From contig DASSYA010000024.1 of NCBI GenBank assembly GCA_035703525.1, positions 69,309 through 133,308 of the forward strand: DNA of 64,000 nt, in the 5' to 3' direction. Positions 1 through 14,151 of the stretch are shown here, one piece after another. Numbering within the stretch: position 1 is the first letter of the stretch; the number at the start of each line of letters is the position of its first letter. The DNA is from Gemmatimonadales bacterium. Its GTDB lineage: Bacteria; Gemmatimonadota; Gemmatimonadetes; Gemmatimonadales; GWC2-71-9. Made by a program: the position numbers and the translations under genes. Below the pieces are notes generated by a model. The model saw only the letters and a list, made by a program, of their open reading frames with translations. It was not told the DNA's origin and did no database searches.

Positions 1-179
1 TCACGACGCGGGAGGGGACGGCATGTCCGGTCCCGAGAATCTGGGTATGAGGCATGACGGAAGCTACGACTGCTGGGCGATGCCGAGAAGTGGCCTGTGC
101 GAGGGGATCCACGGCGACCGTCACTAGGTTCCAGACAGCTGCACCATCCTGACCCATCCAAGTCCCACGGAGACCCGCG

Positions 180-539
180 ATGCCCAGACTGATCCTGTTG
201 GCCGCACTCGCCACAATCGCCACCGCCAGCCTCACCGCCCCAGTGACCGCCCAGACCGCGAGCACGGTCGATGTCTCGGCAATCGATCGCGCCCTGACGG
301 CGCCGGCGACGGATGCTCGTGCCACGCTCACCCGACTGTTCGCCACCGAGCAGGGCAAGGCCGCGAGCTCAACGCTGGGATTGAGCCCGGATGCCGTGGC
401 CGCCAGGGTGGCGATCCTGGATGATGCCGGGGCGGAGCGCCTTGCCGATCGAGTGCTGGCCGGCGGACGTGGCAATGTCGTGATCAGCACGACCGCGATC
501 ATCATCATCCTCCTCGTCCTGATCCTGATCACCGACTAG
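180..539 (+). CDS. Small secreted protein with C-terminal membrane anchor, PA2779-family-like
   Basis: 119-aa ORF with a GGAG about 8 nt upstream of the ATG. Signal peptide LILLAALATIATASLTAPVTAQ. Segment RVAILDDAGAERLADRVLAGG is followed by the hydrophobic tail IIIILLVLILITD. It lies 21 nt upstream of a C39-like peptidase gene, the pairing I recall for PA2779/PA2778 families. Confidence 0.7.
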   Translation: MPRLILLAALATIATASLTAPVTAQTASTVDVSAIDRALTAPATDARATLTRLFATEQGKAASSTLGLSPDAVAARVAILDDAGAERLADRVLAGGRGNVVISTTAIIIILLVLILITD

Positions 540-560
540 CCGACCACTCCGGGCTCCAGC

Positions 561-2606
561 ATGCGGTGCGCGTGGCGAGCCCTCGGGGCCGCGGCCTGCC
601 TGCTGGTTCCCGGTGGCTCGGCCGTCGCGGCACCGGCGGCGGCACCGGCCGATACGCTCCACGTGCCATATCTGGCGCAATCGTGGCTGCTCTGTGGTGG
701 TGCCGCCATTGCGATGGTTGAACGGTGGTGGGGTCGTCGTGGGGTCTTCGGCGAGGACTTTCAGGACCTCGTCCATCCGGAACTTGGCGGGATCCGGACG
801 ACCGACCTGATCCATGCCACGCGCGCGCGCGGGTGGGATGTCGAGCCGTTCGTGGGTACCGCAGCGCGCGTCCGGGCCTCGCTCCACGACCGCAGGCCGG
901 TGGTGGCATTGATCCAGGTGTCCACCGAACGGTTCCACTACGTCGTGATCGTCTCGTGGCATGACGACACGGTCGTCTTCCACGATCCGGCGGTCGGGCC
1001 ATATCGGTCCCTCGACGCGCATGCGTTCATCGGGAAATGGGAGGCCGCCGATCGTTGGGCGCTCCTGGTGACACCGCCCTCCTCACCGGTCGAGATCCCC
1101 GCGACCCCGCGCGCGGCCGCCCCGGATGCACCGCGGCCCCTCCCCTGCCCGCCGTGGCTCAACCGTGCCGTCGAGGCGACACGCCGGAATGATCTCGCGC
1201 TGGCCGAGGAACAGCTCGAGCATGCGCGGGCCGCGTGTCCAGCCGAACCACTCGTGCTCCGGGAGCGCGCGGGCGTGGCGTTTCGGCTGGGGGACCACGA
1301 GATGGTGATCGATCTGGCCACGACCTACCTGCAGCAGGTGCCGACCGACAGCCTCGCCCGCCGAATGCTCGCGGCGAGTCAGTACCTGATCGGCGACCGC
1401 GAGGGTGCCCTCGCCTCGTGGAATCGGATCGGCCGCCCGACCCTCGATCTGCTCCGGGTCGATGGGAGTCACCGGATCCGCTTCGGCGTCCTGGCCGACG
1501 CGATCGATCTTCCGCTCGATCGCCCCCTCACCAGCCGAGCCCTGGCCCTCGCCCGACGGCGACTCGTCGATGTCCCGGGCGTCTCGGCCGCACGGGTCGG
1601 GTACGTCCCCGTCACCGGCGATCGGGTCGAGGGGGAGGTTCGCGTGACCGAGTATCCGCGGCTGCCGTCACTCCCGCACGTCCTGGCGCTGGGCGCCGCC
1701 CGGGCGGTGGCATCGGATCTGGCAGCCATCGACGTTGCCAACCTCACAGGGGGGGGAGAGCGCCTGACCGTGGAGTGGCGATGGCGACGAAGCAATCCCG
1801 GCCTGACCACGCGCCTCGAAGCACCGATGCACCTTGGCATCCCGCTCGTCGTCGGTGTGAGTGGCCGATGGGAGCGCTTCCGGTTCGATGATGGTACCGA
1901 GACGGCCCGGCGCCGGAGTGGCGGGATCGATCTGCATGGCTGGCTCACACCAGGATTCGAGGTCCTGAGTGGCGTGCAGCGTGAGGGATGGGGAGACCAG
2001 CACTATCTCGTGATCACTCTGGGGGGGGGACTGCACGATCGGCGCGATCACGTGGCGCTGACCGCTGCGGTCCAGCAGGCCTTCGCGGATGGCACGCGGT
2101 CGGACTACCAGCGTGTGCGCACGAACCTCGCGTGGCGGTCGACGACGGTCCCCGATGCGCCGGTGGTCGCCGCGCGGTTCGGGATCTCGCACGCCACCGA
2201 TGCCACACCTCGCGGGCTCTGGCCTGTCGCAGGCGGTGGCATCTCGACCCCGATCCCGCTCCGATCCCGGCCACTCCTGATCCACGACCTGCTCCCGAGC
2301 GCGCGGACGGCGCGGACCGTCGTGCATGGTGGCATCGCCGCCGACCACCCGCTCGGGACCCTGGGACCTGTGGCCATCGGTCTCGGCGGGTTTGTCGACG
2401 CGGCCGTGCTCACCCGGCGCACTGCCACACCGCGCACGTCGCGCTGGCTCCTGGACGCCGGCCTCGGACTCCAGATCGGCGCACCGGTGCTCACGACGAT
2501 GCAGTTCCGCCTGGACCTCGCACGGGGCCTGTCCCGTGATGGTCGTTGGGGGCTGAGCGCCGGGCTGGCCCACCCGTGGCCACCGAGGGCCGACGGATTC
2601 CGGTGA
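561..2606 (+). CDS. C39-like cysteine peptidase fused to TPR-like region, POTRA-like domain and Omp85-type beta-barrel
   Basis: 681-aa ORF with a signal peptide (CLLVPGGSAVAAPAAAPA). Papain/C39-type motifs: Q40 and C45 (YLAQSWLLCGGAA), H126 (RFHYVVIV) and FHDP. A helical TPR-like stretch is followed by a POTRA-like unit (LDLLRVDG...VEGEVRVTE). The C-terminal ~310 aa have alternating beta-strand patterns with LRSRPLL, GGFVDAAV, GLGLQIG and FRLDLARGL. Confidence 0.75.
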   Translation: MRCAWRALGAAACLLVPGGSAVAAPAAAPADTLHVPYLAQSWLLCGGAAIAMVERWWGRRGVFGEDFQDLVHPELGGIRTTDLIHATRARGWDVEPFVGTAARVRASLHDRRPVVALIQVSTERFHYVVIVSWHDDTVVFHDPAVGPYRSLDAHAFIGKWEAADRWALLVTPPSSPVEIPATPRAAAPDAPRPLPCPPWLNRAVEATRRNDLALAEEQLEHARAACPAEPLVLRERAGVAFRLGDHEMVIDLATTYLQQVPTDSLARRMLAASQYLIGDREGALASWNRIGRPTLDLLRVDGSHRIRFGVLADAIDLPLDRPLTSRALALARRRLVDVPGVSAARVGYVPVTGDRVEGEVRVTEYPRLPSLPHVLALGAARAVASDLAAIDVANLTGGGERLTVEWRWRRSNPGLTTRLEAPMHLGIPLVVGVSGRWERFRFDDGTETARRRSGGIDLHGWLTPGFEVLSGVQREGWGDQHYLVITLGGGLHDRRDHVALTAAVQQAFADGTRSDYQRVRTNLAWRSTTVPDAPVVAARFGISHATDATPRGLWPVAGGGISTPIPLRSRPLLIHDLLPSARTARTVVHGGIAADHPLGTLGPVAIGLGGFVDAAVLTRRTATPRTSRWLLDAGLGLQIGAPVLTTMQFRLDLARGLSRDGRWGLSAGLAHPWPPRADGFR

Positions 2607-2658
2607 CCTCGCCACCGTGGTAGCTTGGCAACTCCTCCCCATCCGTCCGGAGTTCCGC

Positions 2659-3156
2659 ATGCGACCGACGATTCTCGCCGTCCTGCTCCTGGCCGCGATG
2701 GCCTGCACCCCGGCCAACGACGGCACCACGCCCCCTGCTGGCGAGCATGTGGCAACAACGGCCACAGACTCCGCCGCCCGATTCGCGCACAGCGCCTACA
2801 CCGCTGCGATCAACTCCAATGACCTCGCGCAGCTGAGTGCGATGTTCACCGACGATGTCGTGTTCCTCGTGCCCAACGCACCACCGCTCGTGGGCCGCCA
2901 GGCGGTCATGGACTGGGCCAAGGGCTACGTGGAGGCCTTCGCGACCCATTGGGACAAGACCACCGAGGAGTTCGAGGTGGCGGGCGACTGGGCCTTCGAG
3001 CGCTACAGCTACCGCTCGGTCGACACCCCGCGGAGCGGCGGTGCGCCGATCGAGGATACCGGGTGGGGACTCGTGATCTATCATCACGATCCCGACGGCA
3101 CCTGGCGCGTGGCACGCGACGCGTTCGGTCCCGATCACCCAGCCGCCACACCCTGA
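2659..3156 (+). CDS. Lipoprotein, SnoaL-like / DUF4440 (NTF2 fold)
   Basis: Internal ATG at 2659 gives MRPTILAVLLLAAMAC, a lipobox. The body resembles DUF4440/SnoaL-like proteins (FTDDVVFLVPNAPPLVGRQAV, WRVARDAF). Confidence 0.7.
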   Translation: MRPTILAVLLLAAMACTPANDGTTPPAGEHVATTATDSAARFAHSAYTAAINSNDLAQLSAMFTDDVVFLVPNAPPLVGRQAVMDWAKGYVEAFATHWDKTTEEFEVAGDWAFERYSYRSVDTPRSGGAPIEDTGWGLVIYHHDPDGTWRVARDAFGPDHPAATP

Positions 3157-3171
3157 CAGGATGATTTGACC

Positions 3172-3648
3172 ATGTCGACCCACTCGGCACGGATCAGCTG
3201 GCAGCAGCGGCCGGGCGATCAGTTCACCGCCTCCCGCTACAGCCGAAGCCATCACTGGAGTTTCGACGGTGGGCTCGAGATCCCGGCCTCCGCGTCGCCG
3301 GATCTCGTGCGGCCGCCGTGGTCGGACCCTGCCGCCATCGACCCCGAGGAGGCCTTCGTCGCCAGCCTCGCGAGTTGTCACATGCTCTGGTTCCTCGGCC
3401 TCGCCGCCGAGCAGGGGTTCTCGGTCGCGTCGTACGTCGATGACGCCGCTGGCACACTCGGACGGAACGCGGCCGGGAGGCTTGCCATCACGGCGGTCAC
3501 GCTCGCACCCCGGGTGCGATTCAGCAATGACACCCGACCCACTGAGGCAGAGTTCATGGCGTTGCACCACCTGGCCCACGAGCGGTGCTTCCTCGCCGCG
3601 TCGGTCACCAGCGTCGTGACCTGCGTACCGGCGATGGACACGGCCTGA
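3172..3648 (+). CDS. OsmC family protein
   Basis: ATG at 3172, preceded by AGGA. Typical OsmC/Ohr-like pattern: ARISW..., LASCHMLWFLGLAAEQG, HERCFLAASV. Confidence 0.8.
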   Translation: MSTHSARISWQQRPGDQFTASRYSRSHHWSFDGGLEIPASASPDLVRPPWSDPAAIDPEEAFVASLASCHMLWFLGLAAEQGFSVASYVDDAAGTLGRNAAGRLAITAVTLAPRVRFSNDTRPTEAEFMALHHLAHERCFLAASVTSVVTCVPAMDTA

Positions 3649-3695: not shown

Positions 3696-6149
3696 CTATC
3701 GCATGCGCGTCGCGGTGAAGGGAAACCGGTAGCCTTCCGGGCTGCTGACGTTGCCGGTATCGCCGTCCGAGAACCAGATCACGAAGGTCAATGTCCCCGT
3801 CATGCTGCTGCCGTTGCGCGTGGCCGCCATCTGGATCACCGTCGCAGGTCCGCTCTGGCTCCCGGCATCCTTCACCTGATATGACACCAGAGGAAAGATG
3901 AATTGCGATTCCATCGTCCCCGACGATGGGTCTTCGGTCGACTGCGTGAGGTAGGTGCGGTCCCACCCGGCGAAGAACGGCCCGACGGCAAACTGCACGG
4001 GCGGGGTCCGGCCGAGCAATTGGACCCACTCGCCGCCGCCCTGGGGCGCCACCGGACAACACGACGAATTGGTCCAGGTCCCCACCTTGCGGACACGCAG
4101 GTCGAGTCGAAGGTGCGTCGGGAGCCGTGTGTCGTCGGGCGCGATCGCGATCATCCCCGAGGCGGGTGACGCCAGCAACCGGTGGAGCAGGTCGTACAAG
4201 TCCCCGGAACCGGTGGCATCCCCGTCAAACAGCTCGTCCGCATCGCCGATGGTTTCGATCTGCCAGGACGTCGAGACCTGCGGGACTTCGAGTGAATCCA
4301 CGGCGAGCCGGATTCCCGCATTACTGAAGAGCTCCACCTTCGCGTACTTGGTGACGTCGGAACGATGCTCGTACTGGAAGCTGTGCGGGTCGGTGATACT
4401 CGTTTCCCCGAGGACGTCGGCTCCGAGGCTCCAGCGGAGGAACGACGCGTCACGGCTGATCGGTTCGTCGGCGAGTGTGAGCGTGACCTGTTCTCCGACC
4501 TGGGGCCGCTCGGGCTCGCTACTCAGATCGAAGTGGACCCGTCGGGTCACCAGCCAGGTCCAGTCGATCGTGGTGGCCTTCGGTTCTGTGAAATTCGGAA
4601 ACCACGTGTGGAGCAGTCCACCGCCATAGTCGGCGTCATATTGCTCCATCCGGAGCCGGGTGCCATCGACATCATCCGGGATATCCGAGTTGACCAGTTC
4701 GCCGGCTCCCGTGTACGCCGGCGTGAAAATGCGGTCTCGCGCCTTCCCTCCCGCGCGCTTGACGTTGCAACCGGGGCAGCGGGTCCGGACGAACAGCGAT
4801 TCACTGGCCGTGATGATGGTGTCGGTCAGCGGACGCCACGCGGTATCGACCGGATCCCGGAATTCCTTGATCAGGGCGGGGAATTGGCCGTCACCGATGG
4901 TGCCGTTGTCAAACGCGGCCCAATGGGCGCGCATCCGTTGCTCCGACTGGAGTGTGGAGAGCGACATCACGAACACCTGCGAATTGTAGCGTATCGCCTC
5001 GTCGAGGCTGGATCCGAAGGCAAATTGCTGCCATTCACCATGCGTGAATTGGACATCCAGCCCCGCGCCCGGTGACTGTGAACTCGAGAACGAGAACACA
5101 CCGTGCTTCACCGCATAGGCAATGATGTTCAGGGACGTTCCGGCTGTGGTCTCGTAGGCGGCGGCAAGCTGTGGGGCCTTCGTCACATAGAGGGCGAGCG
5201 CGAGCGCGCGCGCCTGGTTGAGCACCCAATGCTCACCGACCGATCTTGCGGAATCGAGCACGAAGGCGATCCGCTGCTGGAAAGTGGCATTGGCCCGGAC
5301 TTCGGCCTGGATGACCGACGACAACCTGACACCGCGTGGATTGTCATAGTTGAAGTCCGGGATGCGATCGTAGCGACCGAAGAGGGGCCCTTCGGATGCG
5401 CGCCGCTTGTAGAAGTGCCAGAGTGCTCCAAGGGCCGCCCCTGCGCCGTACCCGCGAGGCGTCAGGTACGAGCCGCGATTGGCCAGATCCCAATCGTCCA
5501 CACCGACCTTGAATCCAGTGTCGACGTCGAGCAACAGCGGGTCGCCGACAGCGGCGATGACGACCGAGGCAGGAGTCTTGCCGCCCTGCAGGCCAGGCAT
5601 GACCAGGGTCGAAGTGGGAGGCGCGCTCAGCAACTCGGCACCATCGACGTGACGCGTCAGCACCGTGATTGTCGAGTCGGTTCGGCCGAGCAGCGGAATG
5701 AGTTCAAGCTTGCCCGAGCTGGCGTCGAAGAAGAAGGCAGCGACCGCCGTGTCCTGGGAGACCCGCGCGGGTAGCGTGATGGTGAACGGCAGGGCCCCGT
5801 AGCCCTGACTGTTCTCGAACCGGATCGTCGGACCGATCTGCACTGCGCCAGGCGGCAAGGTCGGACGACTCCCCGTGAGCGCCGTGACCTGCCACGTTCC
5901 AGCCACCTGGTAGGTGCCCCGAGGCACGGCGATGGTCAGCCCGTTGAGAGGGCTCGCGGGATTCTCCACCCGGAGCACCCCACCATCAGGCCCGAGCGGT
6001 GCGTTGTCGATCACGACGGTGCCCGTCGGGGGTGGTGGCGGTGGTGGAGGCGGTGGCGGGGAACCGGGCTCGGTGGGCGGACTCCCGCAGCCCAGGAAGA
6101 CACCCAGACAGCAGACGACGGTGGCAGCATATCGAAAATCGACTCGCAT
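3696..6149 (-). CDS. Large lipoprotein of unknown function with poly-proline tether
   Basis: 817-aa ORF. N-terminus MRVDFRYAATVVCCLGVFLGC carries a lipobox and is followed by GSPPTEPGSPPPPPPPPPPPTG. The frame is consistently GC3-rich. I recognise no catalytic motif. Confidence 0.75.
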   Translation of the reverse strand: MRVDFRYAATVVCCLGVFLGCGSPPTEPGSPPPPPPPPPPPTGTVVIDNAPLGPDGGVLRVENPASPLNGLTIAVPRGTYQVAGTWQVTALTGSRPTLPPGAVQIGPTIRFENSQGYGALPFTITLPARVSQDTAVAAFFFDASSGKLELIPLLGRTDSTITVLTRHVDGAELLSAPPTSTLVMPGLQGGKTPASVVIAAVGDPLLLDVDTGFKVGVDDWDLANRGSYLTPRGYGAGAALGALWHFYKRRASEGPLFGRYDRIPDFNYDNPRGVRLSSVIQAEVRANATFQQRIAFVLDSARSVGEHWVLNQARALALALYVTKAPQLAAAYETTAGTSLNIIAYAVKHGVFSFSSSQSPGAGLDVQFTHGEWQQFAFGSSLDEAIRYNSQVFVMSLSTLQSEQRMRAHWAAFDNGTIGDGQFPALIKEFRDPVDTAWRPLTDTIITASESLFVRTRCPGCNVKRAGGKARDRIFTPAYTGAGELVNSDIPDDVDGTRLRMEQYDADYGGGLLHTWFPNFTEPKATTIDWTWLVTRRVHFDLSSEPERPQVGEQVTLTLADEPISRDASFLRWSLGADVLGETSITDPHSFQYEHRSDVTKYAKVELFSNAGIRLAVDSLEVPQVSTSWQIETIGDADELFDGDATGSGDLYDLLHRLLASPASGMIAIAPDDTRLPTHLRLDLRVRKVGTWTNSSCCPVAPQGGGEWVQLLGRTPPVQFAVGPFFAGWDRTYLTQSTEDPSSGTMESQFIFPLVSYQVKDAGSQSGPATVIQMAATRNGSSMTGTLTFVIWFSDGDTGNVSSPEGYRFPFTATRMR

Positions 6150-9058: not shown

Positions 9059-9217
9059 GGGTGGCCGTGCCCACGATTCCAGGCATGCCGCCCCACGGGG
9101 CGACCTCGCCACTCGCCACGAGGATGCGCCGCTGCCGATCACGTCGCGATGGCGTACCTTCCCTCAGCCGCTGCACGCGCACCGCCTGATCCAGGACCGC
9201 CCACACTGGAGTCTGCC

Positions 9218-11575
9218 ATGCCCTGCCGTCATCCCTCACTGCTCATTGCCGTGCTAGTTGCGATGCCTGCCGCCTCCGCCCAGTCACCCAACTACGGTCG
9301 CGCCATCGCGGCGAGCGGCTCCGACCTGTTCGTCGGCCAGCCACTCAACTGGTATGGACCGGGAACGGTCTATACCTACCGTGTCGATGCCTCGGGCCGA
9401 TGGCAGGAGCAGAGTCGGTTGATTGCGGCTGATTCCGGACGCATGGATTCCTTCGGCCACGCGATCGCGGTCGACGAGAACTTTCTGGCCATCGGGGCCC
9501 CCGAGAAGGGCGACGGGGCAGGACGGGTCTACACCTTCTCGCGTCGCACCTCGAACGCAGCCTGGGAGCCGTCCACCCCGCTCTCCACGACCAGTGGGGG
9601 CGCGTTCGGCAGCACGCTGGTCGCGACGACGAACGGGCTCCTGGTCGGCGCCCCGGGTGCCATGGGACATGGTGCCGTCCATCTGTTCACCCGGTCGGGC
9701 AATGCCCTGTCTGGTGGGACGACGCTCACCCCGATCGATACTGCGGGTGTCGAGAAGTTCGGGACAGCACTCAGCGTCTCGGGTGACTGGCTGTTGATCG
9801 GTGCACCTGATGCCAACGCGAACGCCGGGATGGCTTACGTGGTGCACCGCGACACCGATGGGAGCTGGGGCGCACCGGCCCCGCTCGGCATCCCCGCCGC
9901 CCTCACCGGCACTCGCGCTCGCCTCGGGGCCGCGGTCCTGCTCGACGGCGACCGCGGCTACGTCGGTGCACCCGGGTCAGGTGTGGTGATCACCCTCGAA
10001 CGCACCGACAGCACCTGGCGCGTCACGGGGCTGCTGCAACCGTACGATGGAGGCCGCGGAACCGGCTTCGGCGCCGCGATCGCCCGTGTCGGCAGCGAGA
10101 CCTGGGTGGGAGCACCGAACGCCAACCGGGGCAACGGGTACGTCTACCGCTACCTCATGAATGCGGTGGGCGAGGCGACCGCGGCCGTGCGCGTCACGGC
10201 AGACTCCGCCGATGGCACCAATTGGCCGTTCCAGTTCGGGTACAGCATCGCCTCGACCGACGACCGCGCGTTCGTCGGGATGCCGATGCGCGACTTCGGC
10301 GAGGGTCGCGTGCTGGTCACCGCACGAACGGACGGCGCCTGGCAGACTCGCCAGCTCCTCACCGGCGAGATCGCGGTGCTGGGCGGTGGCGCCGCGACGT
10401 CCGCCAAGTGCGAGAATGGTCGCAACGGGGTCTACACCTGCAACAATGTCGAAGTCCTGGCACACCTCCCGACCGCTGCCCTGGGCGGCGCCCGTGGCGC
10501 ATGGGTCAATGACGTCTGGGGGTGGACGGATCCGGAGACCAACCGCGACTACGCCCTCGTCGCACGGCGTGATGGCGCCTCATTTGTCGATGTCACCAAT
10601 CCGGCCGCACCACGGGTGGTGGGTGACCTGCCGCGCACCGCCGGCTCACCACCATCGGTCTGGCGCGATATCAAGGTCGCCAACAACCACGCGTACATCG
10701 TCGCCGACGGGTCGGGTGCCCACGGGATGCAGGTGTTCGACCTCACGCGCCTGCGCCAGGTGCGAGGTACTCCGGTGGTGTTCACCCCGGACACCACCTA
10801 CCACGAGGTCTTCAGTGCCCACAACGTGGTGGCCAACCCCGCGACGGGGTTCCTCTATGTCGTGGGCAGCAACAGCGGCGGCGAGACCTGTGGCGGGGGC
10901 TTGCACATGGTCGACGCGCGGACCCCGGACCGCCCCGTGTTTGCCGGCTGCTATCACAGCCCCGCGGGGAGTGCCCGTGGTTACACGCACGACGCCCAGT
11001 GTGTCGTGTACCACGGACCCGACAGCGAGCACCGCGGACGCGAGATCTGCGTCGGGTCGAATGAGAGCGAGATCAACATCGCCGACGTCACCGACAAGGC
11101 GCACCCACGCGTCCTCGGCCGCAACAGCTATCCCAATGTCGTCTACGCGCATCAGGGGTGGTTCGACGCCGAGCAACGCTACTTCTACATGAACGACGAG
11201 AACGACGAGGCAGCCGGCAAGGTCGAGGGGACCCGGACCATCGTCTGGGATCTGACCGATCTCGATGATCCTGTCGTCGCCAACATGTACTTCGGGCCGG
11301 TGAACTCATCCGATCACAACCTGTTCGTGGTGGGCAACCGAGTCTTCGAGTCGAACTACGGCAGCGGCCTCCGAGTCCTCGACATCAGTGATCGTGCCCA
11401 TCCTCGCGAAGTGGCCTTCTTCGACAGCGCGCCACTCAACGACGACGGCCCGGGCCACAGCGCCACCCAGAGCGGGGCGTGGAGCAACTACCCGTTCTTC
11501 AAGAGCGGCATCGTGGTCTTCACCTCGGTGCGCGAAGGACTGTTCATCGTGAAGGTGCAGGACCTGGTGCCATGA
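9218..11575 (+). CDS. Secreted FG-GAP repeat / choice-of-anchor B (LVIVD-like) beta-propeller fusion protein
   Basis: ATG 9218 gives the signal peptide MPCRHPSLLIAVLVAMPAASAQ. There are 6-7 FG-GAP-like repeats (FGHAIAVDENFLAIGAP, FGSTLVATTNGLLVGAP, FGTALSVSGDWLLIGAP and others). The C-terminal half matches my recollection of the choice-of-anchor B family (VWGWTDPETNRDYALV, WRDIKVANNHAYIVADGSGAHGMQVFDL). Confidence 0.8.
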   Translation: MPCRHPSLLIAVLVAMPAASAQSPNYGRAIAASGSDLFVGQPLNWYGPGTVYTYRVDASGRWQEQSRLIAADSGRMDSFGHAIAVDENFLAIGAPEKGDGAGRVYTFSRRTSNAAWEPSTPLSTTSGGAFGSTLVATTNGLLVGAPGAMGHGAVHLFTRSGNALSGGTTLTPIDTAGVEKFGTALSVSGDWLLIGAPDANANAGMAYVVHRDTDGSWGAPAPLGIPAALTGTRARLGAAVLLDGDRGYVGAPGSGVVITLERTDSTWRVTGLLQPYDGGRGTGFGAAIARVGSETWVGAPNANRGNGYVYRYLMNAVGEATAAVRVTADSADGTNWPFQFGYSIASTDDRAFVGMPMRDFGEGRVLVTARTDGAWQTRQLLTGEIAVLGGGAATSAKCENGRNGVYTCNNVEVLAHLPTAALGGARGAWVNDVWGWTDPETNRDYALVARRDGASFVDVTNPAAPRVVGDLPRTAGSPPSVWRDIKVANNHAYIVADGSGAHGMQVFDLTRLRQVRGTPVVFTPDTTYHEVFSAHNVVANPATGFLYVVGSNSGGETCGGGLHMVDARTPDRPVFAGCYHSPAGSARGYTHDAQCVVYHGPDSEHRGREICVGSNESEINIADVTDKAHPRVLGRNSYPNVVYAHQGWFDAEQRYFYMNDENDEAAGKVEGTRTIVWDLTDLDDPVVANMYFGPVNSSDHNLFVVGNRVFESNYGSGLRVLDISDRAHPREVAFFDSAPLNDDGPGHSATQSGAWSNYPFFKSGIVVFTSVREGLFIVKVQDLVP

Positions 11576-13536
11576 TCCATGCACCGAGTACCTCGTCGCG
11601 GCGACGCTTGACCAGATGGTTCACCGCGGTGGCGTCGCTGCTCGCCGTCACGAGTTGTGGCTCGGACGGCGGCGGCACGATCCCACCGCCGCCACCACCG
11701 CCGACCGTGGCCTCACTCACCATTCAGGGCCTCCCGGCATCCCTCCAGGTCGGCGAGACCGTCCAGCTTTCGGTCGTCTCGCGCGACGCAGGCGGGGGAC
11801 AGGTCGCAAACCCGGTCATCCAATGGACCAGCACGGTGAAGACTGTCGCCACGGTGTCATCCAACGGGCGTGTCACCGGCGTCTCCGCAGGGCAGACCAT
11901 CGTCCGGGCCGAGGGTGCGGGCCACCAGGATGAGGTGTCGGTGGTCGTCATCGCACCGACCCCAACCGTCGTCTCACTGTTGCCCGCCACGGTGGCCCTG
12001 GCACCGGGCGGGTCTGCGCAGCTCACCTCGGCCGTCCTCGGTGCCAACGGGATCATCCCGGGCCTGACCGTCACCTACGTGAGTTCGCATTCCGACGTCG
12101 CGACGGTCGATGCGACCGGCAAGATCACCGCACTCCGTACCGGACTCACCACCATCACCGCGCGTCACGGATCGCTCACGCAGGTCACCGGCGTGACGGT
12201 CTCGGACCAGGTCCAGAATGTCCGGCTCGCGCGACTCGACATCATCCAGGTCGCCCAGACTGCCGAGGCGGATGTCCCGATCGTGCAGGGCAAGCCGTCG
12301 GCCATCCGCATCTATCCGGTCGCGACGCTTCCCGGGGCGACCGGGGTCACGATCGACGTGCGGCTCGCCCGGGGTGGGGCAAGCGTCTTCACGCAGCGGA
12401 TCACCACGGGAGCCGTGCCGACGTCCTTCGCCCCGCTGCTCGATGGGCGTGCAATCTACCTGCCGCTTCCCGTCGGATTGGACCTCAACGGCGCCCAGCT
12501 GTCCGCGGTGATCGACCCCGATGGTGTGCTCGCGGAGGCGGATGAATTCGACAACACCTTCCCGACATCTCGCGAGCCACCGCTGACCCTGGCCGCAGAA
12601 ACGCTCTTCCCGATCAAGGTGCGCCTGATTCCCTTCGCACCGGCCGGTCAGCCGCTGCCCTCCGTCAGCCAGAGCCAGGCCAGCGAGCTTGTCGCGTTCA
12701 TGCAGGAGATCTATCCGACCGCCACGGTGACCGTGACGGTAGGGGGGGGGATCAACACCACCACGGCCGACTGGAACTCGAGCTTCGGCGTCGGGCAGGC
12801 ACTCAACCAGCTGCAGGCGCAACGCACGCAGGATGGTTCGGATGCCTACTACTACGGGGTGACCGATGGCAGCCCCATCAACGGCGCCGCCGGCTGGGGC
12901 CAGCTCTCGGGCACGGTCTCGATGGGCTGGCCCACGGCCCACATCGTGGCACACGAGGTCGGCCACAATTTCGGGTTGTCGCATCCGGTCGGCTGCGGTA
13001 ACGGGACACCCGGCGCCCCTGGGGCCGTGATCGGCTTGCCGGGCTACAACCCGATGACCGAATCCGAAGTGCCATCGAGTGCGGTGAGCGTGATGAGCTA
13101 CTGTCCGGGCTATGTCTGGATCCAGCCGACGGCCTATCGCACCATTCTCCTGCGACGCCGGAGCGCCACCTCGCTGCGCGCGGAGTCAGGGGGAGGCGCC
13201 GTGGCAGGCCAGGCGGTCGTGCTCCAGGGACAGGTCACGACACAAGGCGATCTCGTGATCGACGCGCCTCGGACCGTCACGGCACCTCGTGGCGTCTCCC
13301 CCGATCTGGGGCCTGTACGGGTTTCCCTGCTGGATGCCGCCGGGGTCGAAGTCCTGCGATGGCACCTGACCCCAACCGCCGTGGCGAACGAGGCGACGGA
13401 GGCGGTGACTGCGCGGGGCTTCGTGGGCGTCATCCCGATGGCACCGATCATGGCTTCAGGGGTCCGGTCCGTGGCCATCGAGATGGACGGCCACGTGACG
13501 GTGCGCCCCCTCCGTGTGGGGGCTGATCCTACTTGA
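11572..13536 (+). CDS. Lipoprotein with Big_2 (bacterial Ig-like) domains and metzincin zinc-protease domain
   Basis: ATG 11572 overlaps the upstream stop (ATGA). Lipobox LLAVTSC is followed by GSDGGGTIPPPPPPPT. Repeated Big_2-like units (ATVSSNGRVTGVSAGQTIV, ATVDATGKITALRTGLTTI). Zinc motif HEVGHNFGLSH (HExxHxxGxxH). Confidence 0.8.
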   Translation: MIHAPSTSSRRRLTRWFTAVASLLAVTSCGSDGGGTIPPPPPPPTVASLTIQGLPASLQVGETVQLSVVSRDAGGGQVANPVIQWTSTVKTVATVSSNGRVTGVSAGQTIVRAEGAGHQDEVSVVVIAPTPTVVSLLPATVALAPGGSAQLTSAVLGANGIIPGLTVTYVSSHSDVATVDATGKITALRTGLTTITARHGSLTQVTGVTVSDQVQNVRLARLDIIQVAQTAEADVPIVQGKPSAIRIYPVATLPGATGVTIDVRLARGGASVFTQRITTGAVPTSFAPLLDGRAIYLPLPVGLDLNGAQLSAVIDPDGVLAEADEFDNTFPTSREPPLTLAAETLFPIKVRLIPFAPAGQPLPSVSQSQASELVAFMQEIYPTATVTVTVGGGINTTTADWNSSFGVGQALNQLQAQRTQDGSDAYYYGVTDGSPINGAAGWGQLSGTVSMGWPTAHIVAHEVGHNFGLSHPVGCGNGTPGAPGAVIGLPGYNPMTESEVPSSAVSVMSYCPGYVWIQPTAYRTILLRRRSATSLRAESGGGAVAGQAVVLQGQVTTQGDLVIDAPRTVTAPRGVSPDLGPVRVSLLDAAGVEVLRWHLTPTAVANEATEAVTARGFVGVIPMAPIMASGVRSVAIEMDGHVTVRPLRVGADPT

Positions 13537-14023
13537 CGCTGAGGTTCGGTGGGTCCTCGCCCAGCGCCTCGGCGAGCTCGATCAGATGGTCCTGCTCCTG
13601 CTTGAGGATCTCGCGGATGTGTTCGGCCGTGGCGTACTCCTGGAGTGCGTCGCATTGACGAACGCGCTCGCGATAGGCCGTGATGGTGTCGACCTCGTTC
13701 TGGAGATCGTAGCGCAACAGCGTCTTGGGATCATCCGACATCTTGACAGCCTTCGGCGTCACGGTCGGGGTCCCGCCGAAGTAGTCGATCTGCTTCGCGA
13801 TCGTGATCGCGTGGGCGAGCTCCTGGGCGGCATGCAGCTCGAGTTCCTTGGCGATCGTCATGTACTGGGCACCGGTGATCACCTGTGAGTAGACGGTGTA
13901 GGCGATGATCGCCTGGAACTCGCGGGCAAGATCCTCGTTGAGCAGGTCGATGAGGCGGGCCCGCGTGATCGTCCCGCCCTTGTCGGCAGCGGGCTTGGTG
14001 GTGCTTCCGGACTTGGTAGCCAT
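13529..14023 (-). CDS. Ferritin-like domain protein (bacterioferritin/Dps superfamily)
   Basis: ATG at 14023 (MATKSGSTTKP). Four-helix ferritin-like motifs: EFQAIIAYTVY, ELELHAAQELAHA, EQDHLIELAE. Confidence 0.75.
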   Translation of the reverse strand: MATKSGSTTKPAADKGGTITRARLIDLLNEDLAREFQAIIAYTVYSQVITGAQYMTIAKELELHAAQELAHAITIAKQIDYFGGTPTVTPKAVKMSDDPKTLLRYDLQNEVDTITAYRERVRQCDALQEYATAEHIREILKQEQDHLIELAEALGEDPPNLSVK

Positions 14024-14151
14024 TGATGAATTCCCGTGAACAGAGGTGAATGGTGGCGTCGGAAAGCCAGCACTGTAAGTGACGGCAATGCAGCGGAACG
14101 CCGCACAGTCACCTTCCCCCGGGCCACCTCCCACCATGGAGAATCGTTCTC

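Follow-up and report, generated by a model that had tools for sequence, protein, structure and literature searches.

A C39 peptidase predicted to be fused to a divergent Omp85-type barrel and encoded next to a tail-anchored PA2779-like partner in Gemmatimonadota

Near the start of a 64,000-nt stretch of a Gemmatimonadales genome (GenBank assembly GCA_035703525.1, contig DASSYA010000024.1, positions 69,309–133,308 of the forward strand; hereafter, the window), two adjacent genes encode a 119-aa PA2779-like protein (the small protein; nt 180..539) and a 681-aa protein (the large protein; nt 561..2606) that links a C39 peptidase domain and a TPR domain to a predicted POTRA domain and Omp85-type barrel. 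An earlier note, made from the sequence, had read this arrangement as a possible self-contained processing, export or envelope-signaling device, and we report here the computational analysis that followed it up. Both open reading frames (ORFs) were confirmed on the plus strand, 21 nt apart, and all features of the two genes described below lie on that strand. Third-position GC was 0.82 in the small ORF and 0.80 in the large one, a coding signature in a window of 68–70% GC, and a GGAG motif lies 9 nt upstream of the ATG of the small gene. A divergent gene on the minus strand starts at about nt 55 (window 1–55; N-terminus MPHTQILGTGHAVPSRVV, which we take to resemble a condensing enzyme of the FabH/chalcone-synthase type) and runs off the window, and therefore the small gene is the first of its own transcription unit. 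Scans of the region for promoters, terminators and Rfam families returned no match. A Gemmatimonadales metagenome-assembled genome (MAG) contains a protein with 100% identity to the large protein, and its sole annotation there is "cysteine peptidase family C39 domain-containing protein".

The N-terminal half of the large protein is recognizable by sequence profiles. Residues 1–27 (MRCAWRALGAAACLLVPGGSAVAAP; nt 561..641), in which n-, h- and c-regions can be read, form a predicted signal peptide and have low model confidence (predicted local distance difference test, pLDDT, <50) and a pairwise identity of 22%. The papain-like C39 cysteine peptidase domain (clan CA) follows at aa 31–172 (nt 651..1076) and matches the Pfam models Peptidase_C39 (PF03412; 30.4 bits, cut-off 22) and C39_2 (PF13529; 26 bits, cut-off 24); Pfam C39 models also matched all 64 of the large homologues searched. 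Among 115 aligned full-length homologues, the catalytic residues named in the earlier note are invariant: the oxyanion Gln, Q40 (codon at nt 678–680), C45 (693–695), H126 (936–938) and D142 (984–986). C45, H126 and D142 align onto the Cys, His and Asp of the PCAT1 peptidase domain in pairwise alignments and of the ComA peptidase domain with the family profile; the Cys position of PCAT1 is Ala in the mutant entry 7n87. Because the catalytic residues are invariant and align with those of PCAT1, with the ComA domain also found, we predict that the domain is an active peptidase and not a degenerate C39-like one.

A Pro-rich flexible linker (aa 173–195, nt 1077..1145; pLDDT <50 at aa 177–186, pairwise identity 26%) leads to a TPR domain at aa 196–292 (nt 1146..1436), modeled as six helices between aa 199 and 288, or three TPR repeats. 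The Pfam models TPR_14 and TPR_19 matched 62/64 and 55/64 homologues, respectively, and the window protein weakly. A profile built from the family found the TPRs of LpoP (E 5e-6) and BepA (E 1e-3), and the NCBIfam model M48_BAM_BepA was matched by 50 of the 64 homologues. Two invariant cysteines, C196 and C226, bracket the TPR segment and may form a disulfide.

The C-terminal half could be assigned by predicted structure. In an AlphaFold2 model built from the 115-sequence alignment (mean pLDDT 89.7, pTM 0.84), the TPR domain is joined without a linker to a single POTRA domain (aa 293–366, nt 1437..1658) with the expected beta-alpha-alpha-beta-beta topology according to DSSP (beta 294–301, alpha 308–315, alpha 325–336, beta 341–351, beta 355–364; pLDDT ~89–95). 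This is followed by an array of strands, a predicted Omp85-type beta-barrel, at aa 387–669 (nt 1719..2567). Foldseek searches of the PDB with this model returned TamA (8us2, 8us3, 8us1 and 4c00) and dozens of BamA structures with E-values from 7e-16 to ~2e-11 and a probability of 1.0. These matches span 416–548 columns at a sequence identity of 10–17%, and those to TamA and BamA that cover 417–488 columns leave room for the POTRA domain as well as the barrel. No TpsB transporter (FhaC or CdiB) was among the 50 best PDB matches listed.

Sequence motifs agree with the fold. An L6-like loop of 37 residues (aa 546–582, nt 2196–2306) carries AGG-x7-P566-L567-R568, in which P566, L567 and R568 are invariant, and a beta13-like motif, F611-x-D613-x-A, lies on the strand at 604–620 with D613 invariant and F611 nearly so. 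D632, G634 and G636 are invariant as well, and the GLG motif is invariant or nearly so. Every motif quoted in the earlier note is present. We take the Omp85 hallmarks of E. coli BamA to be an L6 motif (V/I)RG(F/Y), within AGG...VRG(F/Y), and a beta13 motif (F/G)xDxG, and the forms seen here would be variants of these. An hhalign comparison paired the GGFVDAAV motif with GFADAG of a Pfam-certified Omp85 protein from another locus, L001, at a weak E-value of 0.16.

Profile searches, which the earlier note had proposed as a check, gave no such support. Neither the window protein nor any of the 64 homologues matched the Pfam models for POTRA (PF07244/PF08479), Omp85 (PF01103) or ShlB (PF03865) at E ≤ 10, and a family-profile search of PDB sequences found no barrel; the same profile compared with the POTRA region of Fusobacterium nucleatum BamA (9ccg) scored weakly (E 1.6), and NCBIfam Omp85_fam matched one of the 64 homologues, also weakly (E 0.005). 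Since the hidden Markov model (HMM) route fails, membership in the Omp85 superfamily rests on structure prediction, Foldseek and the motifs, and it is on this predicted fold and these motifs that we consider the large protein a very divergent member of that superfamily. The order of domains proposed earlier, C39–TPR–POTRA–Omp85 barrel, is thus backed by the Pfam C39 matches, by DSSP on the AlphaFold2 model and by Foldseek. The earlier note had called for a POTRA domain and a closed barrel of 16 strands: the POTRA topology and the TamA/BamA matches were recovered, whereas DSSP counted 15 strands (10 before L6 and 5 after) and a helix in place of beta1. That helix (aa 371–385, nt ~1671–1715) occupies most of the segment at aa 367–386 (nt 1659..1718); it is mostly hydrophobic with a conserved R381, and its hydrophobic periodicity favors neither helix nor strand. 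If the helix is real, the barrel seam would be unusual.

The small protein begins with a signal peptide (aa 1–25, nt 180..254) that contains a hydrophobic helix at aa 3–16 and ends in a conserved A-Q (A24 and Q25 nearly invariant), after which signal peptidase would be predicted to cleave. In its structure model, a signal-type helix at the N-terminus is followed by five short ones, then by a flexible hinge that holds the GG and finally by a hydrophobic helix at aa 104–118. A candidate double-glycine recognition and cleavage site for a C39 peptidase lies at aa 77–96 (nt 408..467), where a helix precedes LAGG (aa 93–96), with the presumptive cut at LAGG|R. L80, D81, A89, A94, G95 and G96 are nearly invariant in the alignment of small-protein homologues, and G95–G96 fall in a low-confidence hinge (aa 95–101) between a helix at 82–94 and the tail helix. 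The site, L-A-G-G-R-[AG], agrees with the canonical C39 pattern "lv-x-GG-kag" (PMC5557850). Conservation rises along the protein, from a pairwise identity of 41% in the periplasmic part (aa 26–76) through 55% in the pre-GG helix and 80% in LAGG to 93% in the C-terminal tail. The signal peptide, soluble part, LAGG and hydrophobic tail described in the earlier note were all borne out by the sequence, the homologues and the model.

The hydrophobic tail (aa 101–119, VISTTAIIIILLVLILITD; nt 480..536) is the most conserved part of the small protein. V101–I109, L111, L112, I115 and L116 are invariant in 30 sequences, and the consensus VISTTAIIIxLLxLIL is essentially invariant. The corresponding DNA pattern occurs once in the window, against 0 expected by chance, and in the genome and metagenome loci the motif is confined to the ends of small proteins of ~115–165 aa. 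We considered a general C-terminal sorting signal of the sortase or exosortase kind and rejected it: the motif was found solely on small proteins adjoining the peptidase gene (33 loci from genomes or assemblies and 12 from metagenomes), and the absence of a basic cluster after the tail further weakens the idea. A degenerate form of the pattern also matched a recurrent low-GC sequence (translation MLMTALMPYNSKVISTTAIIITNDFDAISC) in many human-gut contigs (L049, L063, L067, L080 and others); these matches are due to chance and unrelated to the module.

The small gene was found directly upstream of the large gene in all 47 informative loci. These comprise 3 loci from two large-protein homologues, 30/30 genome loci, 3 further loci and 11 of the 12 metagenome loci that bear the tail; in the twelfth, nothing encoding a peptidase follows the small gene on its contig. 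Loci that lack the barrel part lie on contigs that stop before reaching it. The intergenic gap ranges from ~100 nt to a 4-nt overlap. All other neighboring genes vary between loci, and we therefore regard the pair as a two-gene module. In the window the two ORFs share one reading frame, separated by a TAG and six codons, so that readthrough of the stop codon would fuse them; a readthrough fusion was rejected, as the two genes of L001 lie in different frames and those of L127 have a 4-nt overlap (GTGA), and the shared frame is probably a coincidence.

Homologues of the module occur in Gemmatimonadota, in one MAG of the Vicinamibacterales (Acidobacteriota) and in one MAG labeled as a delta proteobacterium, and in Gemmatimonadota the large-protein family is nearly phylum-wide. 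We found at least 239 full-length homologues of the large protein; its C39–TPR part has matches at E ≤ 1e-30 in at least 235 clusters formed at 50% identity, and of the 150 best matches listed, most have lengths of 635–775 aa. Clusters related to the small protein number at least 2056 at 90% identity.

Both proteins are related to a Pseudomonas pair of unknown function, PA2778 and PA2779 (NCBIfam NF033920 and NF033919; Pfam DUF6627), in which a small gene likewise lies beside a C39 peptidase gene. The equivalog model for PA2778 (NF033920) was the best NCBIfam family for the large protein and matched all 64 homologues (best E 2.7e-22), with the window protein scoring 45.8 bits against a cut-off of 150 over positions 4–149 of 255; judged from these profile matches, the large protein is related to the PA2778 family and not a member of it by NCBI's criterion. 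The alignment of the small protein to the PA2779 model runs from end to end and takes in the tail: PA2779_fam gave an E-value of 1.4e-8 and 34.9 bits (cut-off 40; profile positions 4–111 of 123) and matched 30/30 small-protein homologues (best E 4.7e-11), Pfam DUF6627 was a near miss at 24.8 bits (cut-off 27), and the precomputed Pfam column of the protein database assigns PF20332 to this exact protein. The pairing with PA2778/PA2779 that the earlier note drew thus holds at the level of the families, all 64 large and 30 small homologues matching these models, although the window proteins themselves fall below the curated cut-offs. Two small-protein homologues (P0314 and P0384) carry the JGI label "Skp family chaperone for outer membrane proteins" and others are labeled differently; the label is probably a weak automated annotation and possibly hints at a helical, chaperone-like periplasmic domain.

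What sets the large protein apart from PA2778 is an added Omp85 part of ~390 aa, for which the 255-position PA2778 model is too short. Judging by the length of that model, PA2778 peptidases would lack a barrel, as the earlier note has it. A barrel-less PA2778 protein was sought for comparison: a tblastn search against plasmids gave just a cyanobacterial ABC exporter, and the searches of representatives and with profiles for PA2778 relatives were saturated by the fusion family. Our literature search found no functional study of PA2778 or PA2779.

We propose, with about even confidence, that a periplasmic C39/TPR module tethered to the outer membrane cleaves its dedicated partner after LAGG. The small protein would be co-transcribed with the peptidase and leave the cytoplasm through Sec, and its C-terminal hydrophobic tail would anchor it in the inner membrane. 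The strict coupling of the genes and the conserved helix–GG site make it likely that the partner is a dedicated substrate of the peptidase, and the confinement of the tail motif to the small-protein family argues for one substrate per enzyme. The TPR and C39 domains would bind the conserved pre-GG helix and cut after LAGG, which would separate a periplasmic domain of ~70 residues from a 23-residue hydrophobic tail.

A periplasmic location of the peptidase is plausible by analogy with two precedents. The enzyme domain of PlpD lies in the periplasm, where it packs onto the POTRA domain, and the barrel has a scaffolding role (PMC11116518); FapD is a Sec-exported, active periplasmic C39 peptidase that works with an outer-membrane barrel, FapF (PMC5557850). 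We place the C39 domain in the periplasm, in an arrangement like that of PlpD, because of these precedents together with the Sec signal and the linker-free joint between TPR and POTRA. The barrel would then serve mainly as membrane anchor and scaffold and is not a proven channel.

Several observations weigh against cleavage of the partner by the tethered peptidase. About 4 residues separate the GG site from the inner-membrane anchor, whereas the peptidase sits on an outer-membrane tether and can reach no further than the 23-residue Pro-rich linker plus the TPR and POTRA domains allow; the earlier note had not raised this difficulty of geometry. The pre-GG helix lacks the classical −4/−7/−12/−15 hydrophobic spacing of bacteriocin leaders. 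In classical C39 systems the leader is N-terminal and the cargo C-terminal to GG, whereas here the C-terminal fragment would be a bare hydrophobic segment. The small protein was modeled with low confidence (pLDDT 55.6), insufficient for a fold search. A simple anchoring role would also leave unexplained why the tail is so much better conserved than the periplasmic part. The problem of reach might, speculatively, be solved by cleavage while the large protein crosses the periplasm or by an envelope-spanning complex. As for the tail, the 23-residue peptide left by a cut at LAGG contains many beta-branched residues and might itself be the functional product; passed on to the barrel, in which a helix appears to take the place of the canonical beta1 strand, it would complete or gate the barrel seam or move into or across the outer membrane, an idea that we consider very unlikely.

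A different reading makes the large protein a processing-and-export machine, in which the C39 domain cuts at GG and the POTRA domain and barrel move one fragment into or through the outer membrane, be it the ~70-aa domain or the hydrophobic peptide. Such a machine would correspond, at the outer membrane, to peptidase-containing ABC transporters, or to FapD/FapF or TpsA/TpsB. POTRA domains bind substrates in Omp85 and TpsB proteins, the two genes are strictly coupled, and the helix modeled at the beta1 position might reflect a seam or gate of an uncommon kind. Exporters are the typical fusion or working partners of C39 domains, and FapD activity is required for secretion through FapF (PMC5557850). 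The predicted fold speaks otherwise: the best structural matches are TamA and BamA, of the closed-lumen type, TpsB proteins are missing from the 50 best matches listed, the large protein has a single POTRA domain and the partner has no TPS-like domain. PlpD, in which the enzyme domain is not translocated, shows that a protein with an enzyme, POTRA and Omp85 barrel need not export anything, and the suggestion of the earlier note that the fusion gives the peptidase its own pore loses ground on the same evidence. In addition, the periplasmic part of the small protein is its least conserved, which is odd for a functional cargo, and a 19-residue all-hydrophobic peptide would first have to leave the inner membrane when the module encodes no energy source. 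We regard export as unlikely.

Another possibility, quite unlikely in our judgment, is an envelope quality-control or regulatory protease that acts on other envelope proteins at the outer membrane, in the manner of BepA at the BAM complex, with the small protein as a regulator, a pseudo-substrate inhibitor or an immunity-like partner. The resemblance of the TPR domain to those of BepA and LpoP and the frequent M48_BAM_BepA matches point in this direction, although TPR similarity is generic, and a small protein that merely binds would face no problem of reach from inner to outer membrane. PA2778 was listed as a possible toxin candidate beside a protective gene in a TraDIS screen of type VI secretion (T6SS; preprint 10.1101/733030). 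Both proteins carry Sec signals, however, and so are not a T6SS effector–immunity pair; no other conserved neighbor points to a client, and the nearly invariant GG after a conserved helix resembles a real cleavage site.

It is extremely improbable that the barrel exports the C39 (and TPR) passenger to the surface or medium to act on external substrates: although a passenger, one POTRA domain and an Omp85 barrel form the layout originally described for type Vd autotransporters, as far as PMC4104836 relates it from Salacha et al. 2010, and a flexible 23-residue linker follows the C39 domain, that model no longer holds for PlpD, in which the enzyme domain remains periplasmic (PMC11116518), the TPR domain abuts the POTRA domain without a linker, the GG-bearing partner is periplasmic or in the inner membrane and beyond the reach of a surface enzyme, and the passenger is a compact alpha/beta fold and not a beta-helix.

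Whichever role applies, the architecture can be placed among known systems. With PlpD and other patatin-like Omp85 proteins ("type Vd") the large protein shares a Sec signal, an N-terminal enzyme, a single POTRA domain and an Omp85 barrel, and it differs from PlpD in having C39 and TPR domains and no patatin-like phospholipase domain, in its dedicated small partner and in a barrel that the Pfam Omp85 and POTRA models miss. BamA and TamA, which are Omp85 insertases and the best structural matches, have the L6 AGG...(V/L)R and beta13 FxD motifs in common with it, but they have three to five POTRA domains against one here, and the large protein adds an N-terminal peptidase, is modeled with a helix at beta1 and shows no similarity to them at the HMM level. 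TpsB proteins have two POTRA domains and an N-terminal plug helix and act with a TpsA partner that bears a TPS domain; the large protein has one POTRA domain and its partner is a helical protein of 119 aa.

Among peptidases, PCAT1 and ComA share the C39 fold, the Gln/Cys/His/Asp residues, fusion of the peptidase to a membrane protein of the transport type and, in the candidate site of the small protein, L-x-G-G after a helix. Their peptidase domains, however, are cytoplasmic, sit on an inner-membrane ABC exporter and process soluble peptide cargo, whereas the protein described here is predicted to be Sec-exported and to carry an outer-membrane barrel, and in its partner a membrane anchor follows the GG. 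FapD is a protein separate from FapF, a trimeric 12-stranded barrel outside Omp85, and the fap amyloid subunits have no counterpart here; NCBIfam C39_FapD matched one of the 64 homologues, weakly. BepA places a periplasmic protease–TPR module at an Omp85 barrel, as the large protein would, and its TPRs are detectably similar, but its protease is an M48 zinc metalloprotease, it is soluble and a protein of its own, and the similarity is confined to the TPR.

The classes of Omp85 architecture in a 2014 census include patatin, WD40, metallo and lipid-anchored ones, and a peptidase is nowhere mentioned in its text (Heinz & Lithgow 2014), and no C39–Omp85 fusion is described in the literature we searched; the combination thus appears to be undescribed. 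In the Gemmatimonadota genome of L001, an 846-aa protein recognized by the Pfam Omp85 model is encoded beside a Metallophos (PF00149) gene (10789–14094), a pair that recalls the "Metallo" class of Omp85 fusions in that census (Heinz & Lithgow 2014) but consists of two separate genes.

Other genes lie further along the window. Two short genes on the same strand follow the large gene with gaps of ~10 nt (window 2617–3648), one SnoaL/DUF4440-like with a lipoprotein-like N-terminus and the other OsmC-like, and neither is kept beside the module in other loci. The minus strand of window 3696–6149 encodes an 817-aa predicted secreted protein with an 11-residue proline run near its N-terminus and no Pfam match at E ≤ 0.001. 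Window 9149–13536 encodes two large putative secreted proteins, one an FG-GAP/LVIVD repeat protein and the other a Big_2 protein with weak matches to metallopeptidases of the reprolysin/M66 type.

On the strength of its predicted fold, the family is a new enzyme-bearing branch of Omp85 and at the same time a barrel-fused PA2778-type peptidase, and not a categorically new system. The branch is large and was previously missed, being invisible to surveys based on Pfam models such as that of Heinz & Lithgow 2014, and it would provide the second case, after PlpD, of an enzyme carried on an Omp85 scaffold. It also poses a puzzle, namely how a peptidase tethered to the outer membrane would meet a site close to the inner membrane and why the membrane tail of the partner is invariant. 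Should the tail peptide prove to be the product, the module would be a self-contained outer-membrane machine for peptide processing and insertion with no described counterpart. For the uncharacterized PA2778/PA2779-type pairs, our findings offer a testable hypothesis, that the peptidase cleaves its tail-anchored partner at the GG site.

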